From Escherichia phage P896: DNA of 64,000 bases. The notes under the pieces were generated by a model. That model made no database searches. It had not been told where the DNA came from and saw only the letters and a program-made list of their open reading frames with translations. A program made the translations under genes and the position numbers. Where the stretch lies: sequence record OL451225.1; one strand, 5' to 3'. Below, piece after piece: positions 1,246-49,817 of the stretch (the first letter of the stretch is position 1; the number at the start of each line of letters is the position of its first letter).

Positions 1246-3960
1246 TTAAAAATCAAACATATCAAAAAGAGTTGCTTTCTTTTCGTAATCAACCTTTGCA
1301 GCTTCGGAGAAACCTGTTAATGGCTTAACAAAAGTCTTCTGGAACAGTGTGTTGTAGTCCATCCACTGCAGAACCTGGTCACGGATTTCAATCGGGAGTT
1401 CAATCCCAGATGGCCATGCAATCACGGTTTCACCAAACGGGTTGCCGACTTTGAGCGGAAGTACATACACCTTTTCCCCTTCCATGATTTGCGGAACAGT
1501 CTTCAGACCTTTAGTTGCACGCATATATGCAAGCACACCTTTGATATGAGCCGGACACTTAAATCCAGGGAAACCGCCTTCATTATATTTCTGGATGTTG
1601 TTAACCGATGATACACCTGCGATGGTCATGTAGTTAAGCTCATTAAATTCCTTATTGAATTCCTTGAAGTATGTCTGCAGAGATTCTTCACCTTCTTGCA
1701 GCATACGGCGGATACATTCTTTCAGAGCTTTCTGACATGCCTTTGGAGTACTCGACTTTTGAGTTTCCAGACCCATGATTTTCAGTTTCGGAACAGCATA
1801 TCGTGTGCCTTCCATATCGTACACGTTCAACGCATAACGCTTCTTCGCTGTCCAGAATCCACCAACACCCTTCGAACCCAGTGGAGGACATGCAATCGCC
1901 TCACGGTCCATAAACATAAGGTGCTGTTTGTTGTTCATGTATTCAGCCAGCTCACGGAAAGCTTTATCGATTGCCGGTTCCAGACGGTCTTTCGCAAACT
2001 TGTCCATGAAGTCAACCAGGTGGTTTGTATCGCGGAATTTAGATTCACCACCAACCTTTTTAATCAGGTTATCGCACTGGATATAAATGGAGTCAGTGTC
2101 ACCATAGAATACGTAGGTTTCGCCGCTTGTCCCACAGACACTATCGAAGTATTCGTTAACTTTACGCTCAATCCACTGCAATGCAAGTTGTCCGAAAGAT
2201 GTAATCGCGGTTGCATTTCGCAGGTCAAAGTAACGGAACCATATATTGCCCAGAGCGCCATAACAACTGTTGATAAGCAGTTTACGGTTAATCTGTGCGG
2301 TCATGCCTGCAACTTCTTCCATCTGCGCTTTGTACAGCATACCATTTAGGACTGTTTGATTCAGACCATGCAGGGCCGTTTTCATATTGTCATCAAAGTC
2401 ATGACGATAATCAACTTCAGGCTCGGTTGTACCAGTTCCTGGATTACGCAGAGCTTCCTTAATCAGTTCACCATTACGTTGAGCCGCAAGCATATAGCCT
2501 TTGTGTTCTTTACGCTGATTAAACACCTTGGTGACTTCTGTCGGAATAATACCCGCAACATCTTTAAAATACATCATACCATTTGGAGCACAACTAAATG
2601 TATCAGATGGACGGTCAGCAGTTCCTGCAATGTATTCGTACATCGGCGCTGGCGCAAATGACCCGGCAATCGTTTCTGGACTGATGTTAATCTGTCGGAT
2701 AATGCTTGGATACAGAGATGTTAAGTCACAGCTCATTACATATTTGTATGCGTTCGGAATCGGTTCCTTAACAAATGCACCAGGGAACGATTGGCGAACA
2801 TGTGATTTGGTTTCCGGAATGACTTTGTTTTGAGTCTTCAGGCTGTTAAAGATAATCGCATCCCAAGTTTTGATTGGGCTGAATACAGACTGAATCTGCA
2901 TTTTTGCATAATAACCCATTGACTGGCTCAGGTTAATAAACTGCCGCTTACGGTCAATCTGCACAACACGATAAACGTCGATGATGTTATAAGAAATATA
3001 CCGCTGGTGATTTGATTCACGCAGTTTAGAAATCGGGCCATCATACGGGAGTTTACCAACACCCAGTTCAGATTCCGCAACATAATCCAACGAATAAGAC
3101 GGTTGGTTTGTGAAGCTGAACTTTTTATACAGGTCCAGATAATCCAGAACAGAGATACCCAGAATCTGAATGATTTCTTGTTCTTCACCAAAGCCGTTGT
3201 TAATGACTTTAACTTTTGTACGACGATGTGGGCTCAGACGTTTTGCCGTAGCTTCACCAAATACATTTTTAAGGCGGTTGTAGATATATGGAATATCAAA
3301 CTTCTCGATGTTCCAACCAGTTAACATAACCGGAGTTTTCTCGTTCCAGAATACCAAATACTGCTGGAGCATTTCTTCTTCTGAATCGAAAGCCATATAA
3401 ACAATTTTTTCCAGGATTTCTTCCGGGACTTCATCACCACCATCTTCCTGCAGCTTAGCAGCAATATCAATAGACCATTGCTCCACAGTGGCGTATGGTG
3501 AGCCCAAAAGGTCAAAGACATAGAATTTATCGTCTACCGAATCATAGTGCGTCAGGGCGTCAATAGGGTGACGTGCTTCAGACGGCTCAGGGAACCCATC
3601 AGGAGATGTCACCTCGATATCGAAGTTAGCCACACGGATTTTACTTGAATCGTATTTGATTTCGTGCGGGTAACGGTCGGACAAGTATGCGAGTTTAAAG
3701 TCGTCCATGCCCATGGCTTCGAGGCCCATGTCATTCATTCGCTTCATCCACTGGGATGCATCACGCATGGAATCGAATTCTTTTTTCACACAACCTTTAT
3801 TATAGATGTCTGTATACTTTGCAGCTTGGTCTTCACGGGCGTGCATAAACAAGCATGGAGCATAAGGGATTTCACGAACACGTTCATGACCATTCTTGTC
3901 AATATATCGTTCGTGTAGGTTGTCACCGATTTGTTCGATAGTTAAATAAAATTCTTGCAT
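1246..3960 (-). CDS. 43: DNA polymerase (family B), gp43
   Basis: 904-aa ORF with N-terminus MQEFYLTIEQIGDNLHERYID close to recalled T4 gp43; exonuclease and polymerase motifs (YGDTDS) present; ATG start with AAGGAAA RBS. Confidence 0.97.
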   Translation of the reverse strand: MQEFYLTIEQIGDNLHERYIDKNGHERVREIPYAPCLFMHAREDQAAKYTDIYNKGCVKKEFDSMRDASQWMKRMNDMGLEAMGMDDFKLAYLSDRYPHEIKYDSSKIRVANFDIEVTSPDGFPEPSEARHPIDALTHYDSVDDKFYVFDLLGSPYATVEQWSIDIAAKLQEDGGDEVPEEILEKIVYMAFDSEEEMLQQYLVFWNEKTPVMLTGWNIEKFDIPYIYNRLKNVFGEATAKRLSPHRRTKVKVINNGFGEEQEIIQILGISVLDYLDLYKKFSFTNQPSYSLDYVAESELGVGKLPYDGPISKLRESNHQRYISYNIIDVYRVVQIDRKRQFINLSQSMGYYAKMQIQSVFSPIKTWDAIIFNSLKTQNKVIPETKSHVRQSFPGAFVKEPIPNAYKYVMSCDLTSLYPSIIRQINISPETIAGSFAPAPMYEYIAGTADRPSDTFSCAPNGMMYFKDVAGIIPTEVTKVFNQRKEHKGYMLAAQRNGELIKEALRNPGTGTTEPEVDYRHDFDDNMKTALHGLNQTVLNGMLYKAQMEEVAGMTAQINRKLLINSCYGALGNIWFRYFDLRNATAITSFGQLALQWIERKVNEYFDSVCGTSGETYVFYGDTDSIYIQCDNLIKKVGGESKFRDTNHLVDFMDKFAKDRLEPAIDKAFRELAEYMNNKQHLMFMDREAIACPPLGSKGVGGFWTAKKRYALNVYDMEGTRYAVPKLKIMGLETQKSSTPKACQKALKECIRRMLQEGEESLQTYFKEFNKEFNELNYMTIAGVSSVNNIQKYNEGGFPGFKCPAHIKGVLAYMRATKGLKTVPQIMEGEKVYVLPLKVGNPFGETVIAWPSGIELPIEIRDQVLQWMDYNTLFQKTFVKPLTGFSEAAKVDYEKKATLFDMFDF

Positions 3961-4010
3961 TTGGTTTCCTTTATAGTCGAGTGATTGACTTTTGTTTTAT
4001 GACTTGACGC

Positions 4011-4031
4011 TATTATACTACAAAAGGGACC
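4011..4031 (-). terminator. stem-loop GGGAC-UUCG-GUCCC followed by U-rich tract, between regA and gene 43
   Basis: Hairpin with tetraloop and TTTTG run read on the minus strand; about 50 nt upstream of the gene 43 RBS. Confidence 0.5.
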
Positions 4032-4050
4032 GAAGTCCCTTTGCTTTAAA

Positions 4051-4419
4051 TCAATTACCAATTGTATATTTGGCTACGAGCTTCCAGTCGTCTTTTTGTT
4101 TGAAGGAGATAACACGGAAGTTATTTGTTACTGCGAACAATTCATTATGCTCTTCTTCTTTGATAGCGATTAAGCCCCAGTCTTCAAGCAGTTGAGCAAT
4201 GGAATCACGGCGCTGATAGTCTTCGCCATCAATATCCACCTGACGACCATCCATGCGCAGCATTTCTTTGAAGTGAACAATATAATAACGACCTTGCTTT
4301 TGGAGGATGTGGCAGCTCTGGTACAGCACACGGTCTTTATTATTTGCGATGCCCATACGGGTCAGAGTTTCTTTAACTTTCAGGAAGTCTTCAGGTTGCT
4401 TTAATGTAATTTCAATCAT
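4051..4419 (-). CDS. regA: RegA translational repressor of early genes
   Basis: 122 aa, same length and position (between 62 and 43) as T4 RegA. Confidence 0.85.
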   Translation of the reverse strand: MIEITLKQPEDFLKVKETLTRMGIANNKDRVLYQSCHILQKQGRYYIVHFKEMLRMDGRQVDIDGEDYQRRDSIAQLLEDWGLIAIKEEEHNELFAVTNNFRVISFKQKDDWKLVAKYTIGN

Positions 4420-33317: not shown

Positions 33318-33594
33318 TAATTAATCGCACATCCTGGTCATAGGTCAGGAGGCTACGAGTGATAATACCCTTACACGGTCCAGAAATAAATTCCAGAGTA
33401 AAGTAAGGAACCAACTTCATCAAGCGAATACTCGGAGCAGTGCAACGAAATCTGGACCCAATAAAAGGCCCAGACAAAAACACATACTCAAAGAAATTTG
33501 CTTTATTAAAGATTTCAAAATTCTTTACGAAATCTTCTGACCTAACCTTTGGAATAAAATAGATTTGGTCAAAAAGCTCTTCATGGGTCATCAT
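33295..33594 (-). CDS. hypothetical protein, 99 aa
   Basis: ORF track. Confidence 0.45.
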   Translation of the reverse strand: MMTHEELFDQIYFIPKVRSEDFVKNFEIFNKANFFEYVFLSGPFIGSRFRCTAPSIRLMKLVPYFTLEFISGPCKGIITRSLLTYDQDVRLISDWKKYV

Positions 33595-34118
33595 TGCATT
33601 CCTATCACAAAGAACAGTGGCAAAGGCTTATCACCTTGACACATAAATTTATTCATCATTACCTGATAAGCTTCATAGAACTTATCCATTGCAGGGAGGC
33701 GAATAGGTTCTTCAATAATGATTAAAAGACGCGTAAAACGCAATCCACGGTACTTATGGAAATTATCTTCATCAAGGAAACTGCGTACAGTATCATAGAC
33801 AACGAATCCAGGTCGTTCAACATTAAGATGTGGTTGGGCCTTAGAAACCTGTTTTATTACATTACAAATTTCTCGTGAGCGATGTGAAGAACTCGACATA
33901 ACAATCACATCATTACCTTTAGAAACCCAATCAGCTGCGAACTGTGCAATGGCACTTGTTTTACCTGTTTGTCTTCCACCGTCAAGTCTCAGAGTGCCAA
34001 ACTCTTGCATTCTTGAAGCGGGTTCATACCAGGTGTATTGGTCTGAATCTAATCGTTCAATGGCGCGTTCAGCGAAGGCGTGCATTAAGGTTAGATAAAT
34101 GGGAGTTAAAAATTTCAT
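33591..34118 (-). CDS. small P-loop protein, 175 aa (Walker A GGRQTGKTS)
   Basis: ORF track; Walker-A-like GxxxxGKT motif near residue 47. Confidence 0.5.
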   Translation of the reverse strand: MKFLTPIYLTLMHAFAERAIERLDSDQYTWYEPASRMQEFGTLRLDGGRQTGKTSAIAQFAADWVSKGNDVIVMSSSSHRSREICNVIKQVSKAQPHLNVERPGFVVYDTVRSFLDEDNFHKYRGLRFTRLLIIIEEPIRLPAMDKFYEAYQVMMNKFMCQGDKPLPLFFVIGMQ

Positions 34119-34278
34119 AATTGTCTCTTAGTTGTGGGGCCATTCCTTGGCACATAATTCGTCCATGTATCCGTATGTAAACCCTTTACCGCACTTGGGC
34201 TCGACCTTATTACAGGTAGGGAAAGGCCCATCACTCAGAGGACACGAAGTTCATGAGGAGAGGGTCGGCTTGCCTTTA

Positions 34279-34578
34279 TTAGAAAGAACCAGAACCTTTA
34301 ATTGTGTTCTGGCGACCTTTATTTTCCAATTCAGAATGGTCAATTTCATATGCTTGTGCCACGCCAAAAGCCTTTTTAACTTTAGCTAAAGAACCTTTAG
34401 ATGTAACAATATTAAAAGTATTACCTTTGGTAAAATCAACCAAATCCACTTGTACACCTTGTTTACCGAGGCTTGCGACAATAGCATCAACATATTGTTG
34501 GTCTAAATTGCCCTGGACTCCAATTTGGAATGCTTTAGGAGCTTTGGCTTCAGTAATAAATTCTTGATAAGTTTTCAT
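34279..34578 (-). CDS. internal-protein-like head protein with N-terminal capsid-targeting-like sequence MKTYQEFITE
   Basis: 99 aa starting MKTYQEFITEA; matches the recalled T4 internal protein targeting sequence (MKTYQEFIAE). Confidence 0.6.
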   Translation of the reverse strand: MKTYQEFITEAKAPKAFQIGVQGNLDQQYVDAIVASLGKQGVQVDLVDFTKGNTFNIVTSKGSLAKVKKAFGVAQAYEIDHSELENKGRQNTIKGSGSF

Positions 34579-34632
34579 TTTATTCTCTCTAAGTTGATGG
34601 GATAATTATGCACTATCCCATCAAAAAGTAAA
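34579..34632 (-). promoter_or_regulatory. early promoter cassette (-35 GTTTAC, 17-bp spacer, -10 CATAAT bracketed by GATGGGATA/TATCCCATC)
   Basis: Read on the minus strand upstream of the internal-protein-like gene. Confidence 0.55.
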
Positions 34633-34635
34633 CAG

Positions 34636-34899
34636 TTATGCTTTACCGCCAGAAACAATACCAAAGGTCTCAAAGTCCCATTCAATATCGTCAACATCAA
34701 CTTTCTTACCAGCAACCACGAATGCGATTTCGCGACGTTTTGCATAGGTGACAATTTCTTTACCATCGCCGCCAAAGAAAGAATAACCATTGCGCTTCAT
34801 GGTGCCAAAGTCTTCAGCATCACCAGCGAATGCGCGGACTTTAAAGGAACCAGCAGGAGCTTTGGCAGATTCAGTAATAAATTCTTGATAAGTTTTCAT
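34636..34899 (-). CDS. internal-protein-like head protein (MKTYQEFITE start)
   Basis: ORF 34636..34938 trimmed to the internal ATG that yields MKTYQEFITESAKAP; 87 aa. Confidence 0.55.
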   Translation of the reverse strand: MKTYQEFITESAKAPAGSFKVRAFAGDAEDFGTMKRNGYSFFGGDGKEIVTYAKRREIAFVVAGKKVDVDDIEWDFETFGIVSGGKA

Positions 34900-34947
34900 T
34901 TTATATTCCATTGTTTGGTTGATAAAATCATTATACAACCTTTTTAG

Positions 34948-35364
34948 TTAAGCGTACACAGCTTTCCCATAGTATTTGTACCAGGTAGGCTTTTGAGAAA
35001 TTTTCTCATTCAGTCTGGCTTGACTGATTTCAATTGACCAGATTGATGGTTGATAATCATTCTTCCATTCATCAGGAATATCATTTAAATCTTGGGTAGA
35101 AATATCTTTTATGTTAAACCCTCGCTTTAAACATTCCGCAATAAGTTCTTGATGACGGTTTTTAAGGAACAAAAGCTTATCATAAAAGAAGGTGACATGA
35201 CCAGTCCCTAAAAGAAAAGATGATGGGATTTTAAAGTCAGAAACCTTTTTACCATTTTGCACATGCTTACGAACAGCACCAAACACGCGAGGAAGTTCAC
35301 GATATTCGGCCATAAGATGTTGGTCAGCAAGTTCAGATACCAGGGTCAAATTAATGCGAGTCAT
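34948..35364 (-). CDS. denV: endonuclease V (pyrimidine dimer DNA glycosylase) DenV
   Basis: Trimmed to [31 protein letters not shown]..., near-identical to recalled T4 DenV; 138 aa as in T4. Confidence 0.92.
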
Positions 35365-35423
35365 GTTTGTTCTCCTATGTTTGTAGGAGAACATTATATC
35401 ACACGTATCGTGGAAGTAAACTG
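35365..35423 (-). promoter_or_regulatory. promoter-like element with -10 TATAAT followed by hairpin GTTCTCCTA/TAGGAGAAC that contains the denV RBS
   Basis: Read on the minus strand. Confidence 0.4.
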
Positions 35424-35726
35424 TTATTTACCTTTAATTGCTTTAGCTGCTTCGATAGCCGCTTGCTGAAGGTCATCCATAGACATGCCGAACTTAGAAG
35501 CAAAGTTATCAATTTTCTTTTCGACAGAATTCAAAGGCTTGGCCTGTTTACCTTCGTTAGCGCCAGGGAGAGCTAGAATACGCTCTTTGTCAATATAAAG
35601 GCTTACAAGTTTCTTACGGTCTTTATCTGGTAAATCATGAAATGAATGGGCCTTTTTATTTACAGCGGCTTCTAATTTACCTGCACTTACGCGCGCTTCG
35701 GTGATAAATTCTTTATACGTTTTCAT
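35424..35726 (-). CDS. internal-protein-like head protein ([10 protein letters not shown] start)
   Basis: 100 aa; N-terminal capsid-targeting-like sequence; between denV and e, where T4 has ipII/ipIII. Confidence 0.6.
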
Positions 35727-35734
35727 ATTTTACC

Positions 35735-36226
35735 TTATTTGTATGCGCTAAAAGTTCCGGTACGGAACGTTTCTATAACTCGTTTGGCTCGGTTCGGAGT
35801 CTGGACTTTATACCATCTCGAGTCGGCCAGTTCTTTGGCGGCGGCTTCCCACGATTTGGCCTTCAACAATCGCATACCCTTAGGAAAACCAGCAACACCA
35901 GCAACACCCATCTGGAATACCATATTAATGAGTGCACAACGACGAACTTCATCTAGCACATCATAAACAGGTTTTAAGACAGGGTGTCTCAAGATTCCGG
36001 CTTTAGCTTTTTCGACCGAACGGTTAAACAATGTTTCAGCTTCGTGCTGGGTTATGCGACCATTACAGACGCGACCCATGAGCTTGTCGAGCTCGGCACG
36101 AGCAACATCTTTTGATGGGTTCTTAGTTATCAGTTGCCCGATACCAATGGTCCAAAAGCCTTCGGTATCTTTATACAAATCCAACTTACAACCTTCATCT
36201 ATGCGTAACATTTCGAATATATTCAT
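35735..36226 (-). CDS. e: lysozyme (endolysin), gene e
   Basis: 163 aa; [12 protein letters not shown]...KDTEG.WTIGIG...[12 protein letters not shown]...RWY...TPNRAKRVI matches recalled T4 lysozyme. Confidence 0.95.
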
Positions 36227-45339: not shown

Positions 45340-45421
45340 TTTATTCTCCAGTGTTTTATTTGTTAACTCAGTATGGGATAATTATACACTATCCCACCTG
45401 GAAGTAAAACACTTTTCTCAA
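45340..45421 (-). promoter_or_regulatory. early promoter cassette (-10 TATAAT bracketed by ATGGGATA/TATCCCAC)
   Basis: Read on the minus strand. Confidence 0.5.
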
Positions 45422-46032: not shown

Positions 46033-46416
46033 TTATCCGCGAGCAAAGGCCATTGCAGCGCGTTCGTTGGCACGGTCAGTGATGTTCAAGAATTTATCAC
46101 GAGCGATTTCGATTGGAGCACCAACCCAGTCAGCGGCACCATTACCTGGAGACTGTTTAGGACGAACCATATAAGTTGAAACTTTGGAACCAGCTAGTTT
46201 AGCACCAGGTGCTGCTGCGTTTTTAACATCTTTAGCTTTGATGCCAAACCCAGTTACGATACCCCAAGAAACGCCATTAACTGGTTTCTTGAACATAACA
46301 CGGTCACCAATTGAAACACCGGCTTTTTCTGGAGCCACTAAAGAAAATTTGCCAGCTTCAGTCAGTACGGATTCGGTGATGGTATTGCGATTTAAAAATT
46401 CTGCATATGTAAGCAT
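46033..46416 (-). CDS. hypothetical protein, 127 aa
   Basis: ORF track; ATG with GGAAAAA RBS. Confidence 0.5.
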   Translation of the reverse strand: MLTYAEFLNRNTITESVLTEAGKFSLVAPEKAGVSIGDRVMFKKPVNGVSWGIVTGFGIKAKDVKNAAAPGAKLAGSKVSTYMVRPKQSPGNGAADWVGAPIEIARDKFLNITDRANERAAMAFARG

Positions 46417-46458
46417 TTTGTTTTTCCATTATTAGGGTTGTTGTTAATATTTATATTC

Positions 46459-46908: not shown

Positions 46909-46985
46909 TGGTCGGGGTGGTGGGATTCTAACCCACAACCTACGGTTTAGAAGACCGTTGCTCTATACAATTAAGCTACACCCCG
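46909..46985 (-). tRNA. tRNA-Arg (anticodon UCU), CCA encoded
   Basis: Minus strand folds as a cloverleaf: acceptor CGGGGUG/CACCCCG, anticodon loop CUUCUAA, T-loop GGUUAGAAUCC, 3' ACCA. Confidence 0.75.
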
Positions 46986-47061
46986 GGTGGCCCCATCCGG
47001 ACTTGAACCGGAAACCTGCCAGTTATGAGCCGGATGCTCTAACCAATTGAGCTACAGGGCC
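46986..47061 (-). tRNA. tRNA with CAU anticodon (Ile2-type or Met), directly abutting tRNA-Arg
   Basis: GGCCCUGUAGCUCAAUUGGUUAGAGC D-arm, anticodon loop CUCAUAA, T-arm UCCGGUUCAAGUCCGGA; acceptor has two G-U pairs and the anticodon stem one mismatch. Confidence 0.6.
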
Positions 47062-48504: not shown

Positions 48505-48561
48505 TTTATTCTCCTCAGTAGTTGATGGGATAATCATACTACAGTTATCCCATCACGTACA
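48505..48561 (-). promoter_or_regulatory. early promoter cassette, GATGGGATA class (inverted repeat GATGGGATAA/TTATCCCATC)
   Basis: Read directly. Confidence 0.5.
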
Positions 48562-48840
48562 CTAAATTTTTGTATATTGTCCAGCTTTAACTTTTTTCAG
48601 TTCACGAGGGCTTACCGCGTAAGTGAATGGAGCATTCCAGGAAGAACTGACTTTGTAACCTTTAGTCAACATCATTGCTGAAACTTTCTTGTTATCAGGA
48701 CCGTTTTCGCCTTTAACAAGAAACAACTCAAATGCGCCCCCATCAACCGGTTTGGCCTTAACCATCAGATGTCCTTTCAGGTCTTCCAGCATATCCGGGT
48801 GACTAATTGATTCGTTAATAAATTCTTGATAAGTTTTCAT
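48562..48840 (-). CDS. internal-protein-like head protein (MKTYQEFINE start)
   Basis: 92 aa with N-terminal capsid-targeting-like sequence. Confidence 0.55.
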   Translation of the reverse strand: MKTYQEFINESISHPDMLEDLKGHLMVKAKPVDGGAFELFLVKGENGPDNKKVSAMMLTKGYKVSSSWNAPFTYAVSPRELKKVKAGQYTKI

Positions 48841-48895
48841 TAGTAGCTCCAGTAGTTGATGGGATAATTATACTGCAACTATCCCATCGTGTACA
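48841..48895 (-). promoter_or_regulatory. early promoter cassette (-35 GTACAC, 16-bp spacer, -10 TATAAT bracketed by GATGGGATA/TATCCCATC)
   Basis: Read on the minus strand. Confidence 0.55.
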
Positions 48896-49195
48896 TTACA
48901 TTTTTGAACCACGAATTACACCATAAGCGGCGAAGTCGTCAGAAATATCTTTAGGTGAGTTCTTACCAGTTTCAATGAAGGCAATGCTTGACTTCTGACT
49001 AAAAGAGGTAATTTTGTTATAGTTGGAGTCAAGGAAGGTATAACCATTTTTGCGTAGCTGGTCAAAGTCTTCAGCGTCGCCTTTGCCTTTGAAGTCAACC
49101 CATTTGTAGGTGTTTTTCTTCTGAAGACCCAGAGGCCAGGTTTTTGCTTCTGCCAGGTAATTGTTTTCTACCAAAAATTCATGAAAAGTTTGCAT
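48896..49195 (-). CDS. internal-protein-like protein (MQTFHEFLVE start)
   Basis: 99 aa; divergent targeting-like N-terminus. Confidence 0.5.
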   Translation of the reverse strand: MQTFHEFLVENNYLAEAKTWPLGLQKKNTYKWVDFKGKGDAEDFDQLRKNGYTFLDSNYNKITSFSQKSSIAFIETGKNSPKDISDDFAAYGVIRGSKM

Positions 49196-49203
49196 TTGAA
49201 ATC

Positions 49204-49476
49204 CTATTTTAGATAAATTGCATATTTTTTATAACCAGCTGTCTCATGACGGAGACCCTTGTCATTGGCAAAACGCTCAATGTTATTAATTTGGTTCTGG
49301 TCAAGTTCTGAAATGTCAAACGCGAAAAAGTTGCGTTTGTTACCAATTGTTATATGGTCAGTCAAGTCAATGCTATACAGGTGATTGATATTGTCAATCA
49401 TAGCTTTGACTGCTTTACTAATTTTTACTTCTTCATTCAGTTGGGACTCGTTGAAAAGTTCATTGAAAGTTTTCAT
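49204..49476 (-). CDS. internal-protein-like protein (MKTFNELFNE start)
   Basis: 90 aa; divergent targeting-like N-terminus. Confidence 0.5.
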   Translation of the reverse strand: MKTFNELFNESQLNEEVKISKAVKAMIDNINHLYSIDLTDHITIGNKRNFFAFDISELDQNQINNIERFANDKGLRHETAGYKKYAIYLK

Positions 49477-49484
49477 AAGAAACC

Positions 49485-49817
49485 TTATTTATATAGTTTT
49501 GCCAGTTCTTTACGTCCGCGAGCAGACATAATAAATTGTTCATCGCCAATTTTAAAATAAGCCATACCACCGTCAACAGCGATACCAATTTCTTTAGTAC
49601 CTTCTTTGCCTTTCCACTTGCCACCAGATTTCAGAACAGCTTCAACTGCAGCTTTGGAATATTTGGACGTTTGAAAACGTTCATTACCAATCTGAAAGAA
49701 AACACCATCTGCATTTTTGGTTAAACCAAATTTCAGAGAGCCTTCACTATCATCAATTGATTTGGTCTCATTGATGGCGGATTCGGCTAAAAACTCGTTG
49801 TAAGTTTTGATGTTCAT
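49485..49817 (-). CDS. internal-protein-like protein (MNIKTYNEFLAE start)
   Basis: ORF 49485..49850 trimmed to ATG at 49817 with GGAG RBS; 110 aa. Confidence 0.5.
   Translation of the reverse strand: MNIKTYNEFLAESAINETKSIDDSEGSLKFGLTKNADGVFFQIGNERFQTSKYSKAAVEAVLKSGGKWKGKEGTKEIGIAVDGGMAYFKIGDEQFIMSARGRKELAKLYK

Follow-up and report, generated by a model that had tools for sequence, protein, structure and literature searches.

Gene Content of the e-denV-vs.8 Locus

Three small open reading frames on the minus strand, here called A (34279..34578), B (34636..34899) and C (35424..35726), lie between the lysozyme gene e and vs.8 in DNA of Escherichia phage P896 (OL451225.1; the window, meaning the whole stretch analyzed here, is 64,000 nucleotides long). 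A sequence-only reading of this DNA had proposed three genes at these positions, each starting with MKTY[Q/K]EFITE and together flanking denV, and the ORFs were found exactly there. The gene denV, encoding endonuclease V (34948..35364, minus strand), separates B from C; it has the T4-type start MTRINL and 80% nucleotide identity to T4 denV, and as a conserved gene flanked by internal protein (ip) cassettes it is context and not part of the system. Gene e (35735..36226) is located just upstream of C, with nudE also upstream, and a vs.8 homolog (33591..34118) follows downstream of A, giving the order nudE-e-C-denV-B-A-vs.8. The window contains both classical T-even ip loci, e-denV-vs.8 and 57B-tRNA, and A, B, and C occupy the first of these variable loci of T4-type genomes.

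Over its full length, the locus has 98.2% identity to that of Escherichia phage PSD2001, where the gene order is the same and A, B, and C are all labeled "hypothetical protein." Identity to phage CJ20 is 97%, and parts of the locus are common to 651 phage records. PSD2001 and CJ20 both belong to Gaprivervirus (Tevenvirinae), and by this similarity the window is that of a Gaprivervirus-type T4-like coliphage. Related records already list the genes under ip or internal head protein annotations. Among the core genes of T4-like phages are those for gp21, the prohead protease, and for the scaffolding core (PMC9026906). The 64-kb window does not carry them, and the related genome VR7 encodes gp21 along with the core proteins gp22, gp67, and gp68.

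The intergenic segment between A and vs.8 (34119-34278, about 160 nt) appears by eye to be richer in G+C than its surroundings. Within it, positions 34137-34220 align at 83% with the 5′ end of T4 vs.8. Rfam has no match for the segment, which may be what is left of a longer vs.8 or else an element not yet characterized. Over the whole window, Rfam identified only two tRNAs and none in the ip locus. These two tRNA genes (46912-47061, minus strand) are the only ones between the two ip loci, compared with eight or more at that place in T4 and T2.

A Shared N-Terminal Tag Ending in a Predicted Protease Site

The products of A and B both begin with MKTYQEFITE, and that of C has the same form with K at position 5. 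In all three, I-T-E occupies residues 8-10 and would close a pro-peptide at the predicted gp21 motif L/I-x-E. The corresponding T4 sequence, read from NC_000866, is MKTYQEFIAE in ipII and ipIII, so that 8-9 of the 10 residues in the A, B, and C tags are identical to it, Y4 and F7 included; in T4 IPI, I-T-E is found at positions 17-19, at the end of a 19-residue pro-peptide. The sequence-only reading had recognized in these starts the T4 capsid-targeting sequence with a putative L/I-x-E site for the prohead protease, and the comparison with T4 bears out both points at the level of predicted protein. A six-frame scan of the 64 kb with the strict motif M[KR]T[YF].[ED]F[ILV].E returned only four matches, all at ORF starts and all on the same strand, which excludes chance as the source of the tag. 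The tag codons of A and B are the same, while in C four of the codons are changed, three synonymously; this mostly synonymous change points to constraint on the peptide and not just on the DNA.

The function of such tags is known from work on T4. There, the ten N-terminal residues of IPIII are enough to bring it to the head and into the prohead core, T4 internal protein (IP) pro-peptides are 10-19 residues long, and gp21 cuts after L/I-X-E; targeting depends on residues 4 and 7 of the tag, and processing on residues 8 and 10 (PMC9026906).

Gene C, an Ortholog of T4 ipII

Gene C encodes 100 amino acids, with a predicted mature protein of 90 aa (9.8 kDa, pI 9.7). It is 94% identical to T4 IPII over all 100 residues (T4 sequence from NC_000866), it matches phrog_7857, "internal virion protein," with an E value of 1e-54, and its homolog in phage CJ20 is annotated "ipII protein." C also shares with T4 Ip2 its length, cleavage position, and neighborhood between e and denV, and differs from it by six substitutions, the tag changes Q5K and A9T among them. 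On homology and position, C is the ortholog of T4 ipII. The surrounding locus is not identical to that of T4, which has ipIII between e and ipII; ipIII is missing from the P896 locus. T4 Ip2 inhibits the GmrSD/BrxU Type IV restriction enzyme of E. coli ECOR21 (Silas et al., 2025, PMC12373910). Given the 94% orthology, C would be expected to act like Ip2, most likely by blocking a GmrSD/BrxU-type Type IV nuclease.

Genes A and B and Their Unrelated Bodies

Gene A encodes 99 aa starting with MKTYQEFITEAKAP, of which the pro-peptide MKTYQEFITE would be removed to leave a predicted mature protein of 89 aa (9.5 kDa, pI 9.3). The body of A is 47% identical to T2 ip7 and is present in 283 phage records, with identity down to about 41%; VR7 ip7 is its positional homolog. 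A matches phrog_2667 (E value of 8e-43), and a structural search of BFVD returned the "Ip7 protein" of phage MX01 as the best match. The AlphaFold model (mean pLDDT of 75) predicts a beta-alpha-beta-beta-alpha-beta fold. Together, these similarities class A as an Ip7-family internal protein, the Ip7 proteins of T2 and MX01 having both the tag and about 47-49% body identity to A. The genes differ in location, as T2 ip7 sits in the other ip locus, in the order 57B-ip5-ip7-trna.4, while A sits downstream of denV. For Ip7 of phage T2 and its relatives, the ip genes are those of Repoila et al. (1994, EMBO J 13:4181; cited in PMC12373910). A literature search on Ip5, Ip7, Ip9, and Ip10 returned only unrelated papers.

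Gene B encodes 87 aa starting with MKTYQEFITESAKAP, with the pro-peptide MKTYQEFITE and a predicted mature protein of 77 aa (8.3 kDa, pI 6.2). It is the counterpart of VR7ORF127c and of RB69 ORF125c, which are annotated "internal head protein." The body of B occurs in 205 phage records, several with that same label, and most homologs are 60-80% identical; its only named matches carry the internal head protein annotation, and none has been studied by experiment. Members of the RB69 ORF125c/Mosigvirus "internal head protein" family, found in Mosigvirus and in Salmonella T4-like phages, have 71-78% body identity to B and the same position downstream of denV; in Mosigvirus p000v, the one inspected, the homolog is directly downstream of denV. 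We know of no characterized member of this RB69 ORF125c-type family. The predicted sizes of mature A, B, and C (8-10 kDa) resemble those of T4 IPs, and mature A and C would also be basic. Mature B would be near neutral, unlike the basic T4 IPs.

Apart from the tag, sequence methods detect no relationship among the three proteins, in line with the unrelated bodies proposed from the sequence alone. When the first 12 residues were removed, BLASTP gave E values above 1 for A/B, A/C, and B/C. PHROG 2667 matches both A and B, and a distant homology between the two was considered on this basis. It was ruled out by HHalign of the A-family and B-family alignments, where the probability fell from 96% with the tag to 0.3% without the first 11 residues; the link through PHROG 2667 is therefore an artifact of the shared tag. 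Right after the predicted cleavage site, at residues 11-16, an AKAP motif is found in both A (E|AKAPKAF) and B (E|SAKAPAGSF), the remaining bodies being unrelated, and the exchanged unit may reach a few codons past the tag.

Other searches gave no functional lead. Pfam returned no match above the curated cut-offs for any of the seven tagged proteins of the window (four of which are described below), a PDB sequence search with A and B returned no meaningful match, and large protein databases yielded only shallow, phage-restricted families, with 21 matches for A and 5 for B. AlphaFold predicts compact, folded structures for both. Conservation of the kind described above has already refuted the notion that these ORFs are chance or decayed frames: A and B have full-length homologs in their 283 and 205 phage records, C is 94% identical to an experimentally characterized protein, and the modeled structures are likewise those expected of folded proteins. 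The small size of the genes and their "hypothetical protein" labels in PSD2001 are all that could be cited in favor of this notion, and its probability is negligible.

A Second Tagged Cluster Next to 57B

Beyond the three genes first noticed, four further tagged genes on the minus strand (D, E, F, and G) adjoin 57B, 57A, and gene 1 in the same window, at the position occupied by ipI in T4 and by ip5 and ip7 in T2. Gene D (48562..48840; phrog_15565) has the tag MKTYQEFINE. In gene E (48896..49195), a paralog of B (33% identity, E value of 8e-16), the tag has diverged to MQTFHEFLVENNYLAE. The tag of gene F (49204..49476; phrog_7673, internal head protein), MKTFNELFNESQLNE, is likewise diverged, and this gene has its canonical late promoter at 49486-49493; gene G (49485..49817; phrog_3966) starts with the tag MNIKTYNEFLAE. 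At the protein level, the diverged tags of E, F, and G keep the pattern Y/F4, F/L7, and L/I-x-E. L/I-x-E falls within residues 1-17 of all seven tagged proteins, which have predicted mature masses of 8-11 kDa and, in six of the seven, a predicted pI above 8, B being the exception.

A further ORF of 127 aa (46033-46416, minus strand) starts with MLTYAEFLNRNTITESVLTEAGK, which is tag-like (TYxEFL) and is followed by I-T-E and L-T-E, similar to the long pro-peptide of T4 IPI. The canonical T4 late promoter TATAAATA is found about 30 nt upstream of it (46448-46455, minus strand). No PHROG matches this ORF, and the phage records that contain it number only 15; in all of them it is at least 99% identical and either labeled "hypothetical protein" or unannotated. 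It may represent an unannotated internal protein.

Promoter-Like Sites and Hairpins

T4 ip genes are expressed both early and late. In the window, where promoter and hairpin sites were assigned solely by consensus matching, the canonical late promoter TATAAATA is not found directly upstream of A, B, or C. A near-consensus late promoter with one mismatch, TACAAATA, is located 9 nt upstream of the C start codon (35736..35743, minus strand); this layout, with TACAAATAAGG nine bases before the start, mirrors that of the canonical TATAAATAAGG upstream of gene F (49493). A and B have only early-type promoter-like sites. Upstream of A, such a site (TTTACT-16-CATAAT; 34596..34633, minus strand) overlaps the hairpin GATGGGATA...TATCCCATC. 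A GTTTAC-type -35 and a hairpin with the -10 in its loop are found before each of A, D, and denV, and likewise before T4 ipI and denV; upstream of B, a comparable hairpin encloses an extended -10, and the -35 there is less distinct.

GGGATA-N-TATCCC hairpins are found at 34599, 45375, 48527, and 48861, four in the window compared with 0.01 expected by chance. The full element, GATGGGATA followed by a loop with a TATAAT-like -10 and then TATCCCATCAAC, spans 34596-34622, 45375-45395, 48527-48551, and 48861-48885; it precedes A and is present on both sides of D. The four copies are comparable to the PeSL cassettes of T4-type hyperplastic regions, which similarly combine a hairpin, a sigma-70-like early promoter, and a Shine-Dalgarno sequence (PMC2839356, PMC4122927), and like them they lie at the borders of variable genes, flanking A and D. 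Two features differ. The -10 is in the hairpin loop here and not downstream of the hairpin, and the only indel that could be mapped, described below, has its crossover in the tag-coding repeat and not in a hairpin.

Exchange of Cassettes Through Tag-Coding DNA

Comparison of the locus across related phages, which the sequence-only reading had suggested as a check on its view of the genes as a rapidly exchanging cargo, reveals the turnover expected of such a cargo. In CJ20 and VR7, denV and the B homolog are separated by an additional gene, ip10, which the window and PSD2001 do not have; VR7 has no ipII at the e-denV locus, and the T2 homolog of A is found at the other ip locus. Base by base, the window matches the upstream region and tag of CJ20 ip10 without a difference for 84 nt and then continues into the body of the CJ20 B homolog. 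The crossover of the indel by which the window differs from CJ20 and VR7 at ip10 is thereby shown directly to lie inside the 33-nt tag-coding repeat of B (34867..34899, minus strand), a sequence that the two genes share.

That the tag-coding DNA does serve as a recombination crossover raises another explanation, in which the 5′ sequence common to the genes acts chiefly as a nucleic-acid element, such as a translation initiation region or a recombination site, and A and B are unpackaged cytoplasmic early proteins. The early-type promoter-like sites, as opposed to canonical late promoters, before A and B would fit this explanation as well. It is harder to reconcile with the retention of the C peptide despite three synonymous codon changes, or with the tags of E, F, and G, which have diverged yet keep the key positions in protein, and in T4 the ten residues are by themselves enough to target a protein to the head (PMC9026906). 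We consider it very improbable that the tag is primarily a nucleic-acid element, and a targeting peptide whose coding sequence also supports recombination remains the preferred reading.

An exact scan of IMG/VR for the tag-coding pattern identified 55 loci. Pooled with the window and reference loci, these gave 71 distinct proteins in 20 body clusters, between which there was no BLASTP link at an E value below 1e-4. In environmental IMG/VR contigs of 31-43% GC, unrelated larger proteins (about 170-296 aa, often lysine-rich) start with the verbatim tag, as in ORFs 5476-5988 of contig L029 and 3497-4171 and 4168-4854 of contig L041, and also in L007, L011, L024, L030, L033, L036, L039, L040, L043, L055, and L057. 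L029 carries gp13-, gp14-, and gp15-like genes and L041 a large terminase, which makes at least these two contigs those of tailed phages, L029 being T4-like in look. Judging from these starts, the tag seems to be conserved well beyond the enterobacterial T-even phages.

Putative Packaging, Injection, and Anti-Defense Function

Very probably, A, B, and C belong to the ip genes of a T4-type myovirus, and their products would be tagged, packaged, cleaved, and injected, C acting against a GmrSD enzyme and A and B against host defenses. By analogy with T4, from which targeting, cleavage, injection, and Ip2 function are known, the ten-residue tag MKTY[Q/K]EFITE would bind each protein to the gp22 scaffolding core during prohead assembly. 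Cleavage by gp21 after Glu10 of I-T-E would leave a small mature protein of 8-10 kDa inside the head, which would be ejected into the cell with the DNA and could act before any phage gene is expressed. C, as the Ip2 ortholog, would most likely block a GmrSD/BrxU-type Type IV nuclease that attacks modified phage DNA, and the Ip7-like A, along with B, would most likely neutralize other first-line DNA-targeting host defenses. Identical tag-coding DNA and the hairpin/promoter motifs between cassettes could provide short homologies by which recombination adds, deletes, and swaps bodies. A literature search for virion proteomics or mature N-termini of P896, of A and B homologs, or of VR7- and JS98-type phages returned nothing usable.

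The T4 precedent for this function is extensive. IPs have been described as diverse defense proteins that share only the CTS (PMC3012670). The sequence-only reading had noted that T4 internal proteins are injected with the DNA and that at least one is an anti-restriction factor; the precedent of injection stands, and the count is outdated, as Ip1, Ip2, and Ip3 of T4 have each been shown to inhibit a different Type IV restriction enzyme of the GmrSD family (PMC12373910). T4 requires IPIII to grow on ECOR17, and the protein is still active without its CTS when the host supplies it (PMC9391042). IPI*, an inhibitor of GmrSD-CT596 with a solved structure, is like A, B, and C in its N-terminal pro-peptide ending in I-T-E and its small mature size. 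The anti-defense role suggested for A and B follows from the behavior of this family, and an anti-GmrSD role for either is unproven. When ten further ip genes were assayed against five other active GmrSD systems, no new interaction was found (PMC12373910). Gapriverviruses are reportedly without the known hmC synthase (PMC8056088), and their DNA modification, and hence the restriction enzymes relevant to them, are uncertain.

Those ten ip genes that gave no inhibition of additional GmrSDs (PMC12373910) would also be compatible with a purely structural function, in which A and B are packaged but serve to neutralize DNA charge, organize the DNA, or assemble the prohead core, instead of inhibiting defenses. 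Basic IPs are present at about 300 copies of each per head with lysine contacts to DNA, and T4 IPIII mutants have slower head assembly and a smaller burst (PMC9026906; PMC3012670). Mature A, predicted to be basic, would suit such a function. B is not basic, however, and unrelated bodies, a patchy distribution, and cassette turnover are not what a structural role would lead one to expect. Moreover, all three T4 IPs of known function are specific anti-restriction proteins, and T4 without IPs grows on laboratory hosts (PMC12373910; PMC9026906). A structural role for A and B is therefore improbable, and we favor injected anti-defense proteins.

Implications for T4-Like Phages

The finding is not new: earlier publications already cover the tag and its cleavage rule, the existence of two variable ip loci, the lack of relatedness among the bodies, and the function in anti-restriction. 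Conceptually the locus adds nothing, and its value is that of a clean annotated example, in which an Ip2 ortholog stands beside two uncharacterized cassettes and a mapped tag-mediated recombination event. A and B, together with a few neighbors, are candidates for anti-defense screens. That A, B, or the 46033-46416 ORF could be an injected inhibitor of defenses beyond the known GmrSD variants is a tentative suggestion, which we regard as possible rather than probable. If it were true, the verbatim tag would mark a pool of injected anti-defense cargo that is discoverable from sequence and far larger than the roughly ten ip genes described. As injected proteins precede phage gene expression, they decide whether modified DNA survives first-line restriction and thereby help to set the host range, a property of practical importance where T4-like phages are combined into therapy cocktails.
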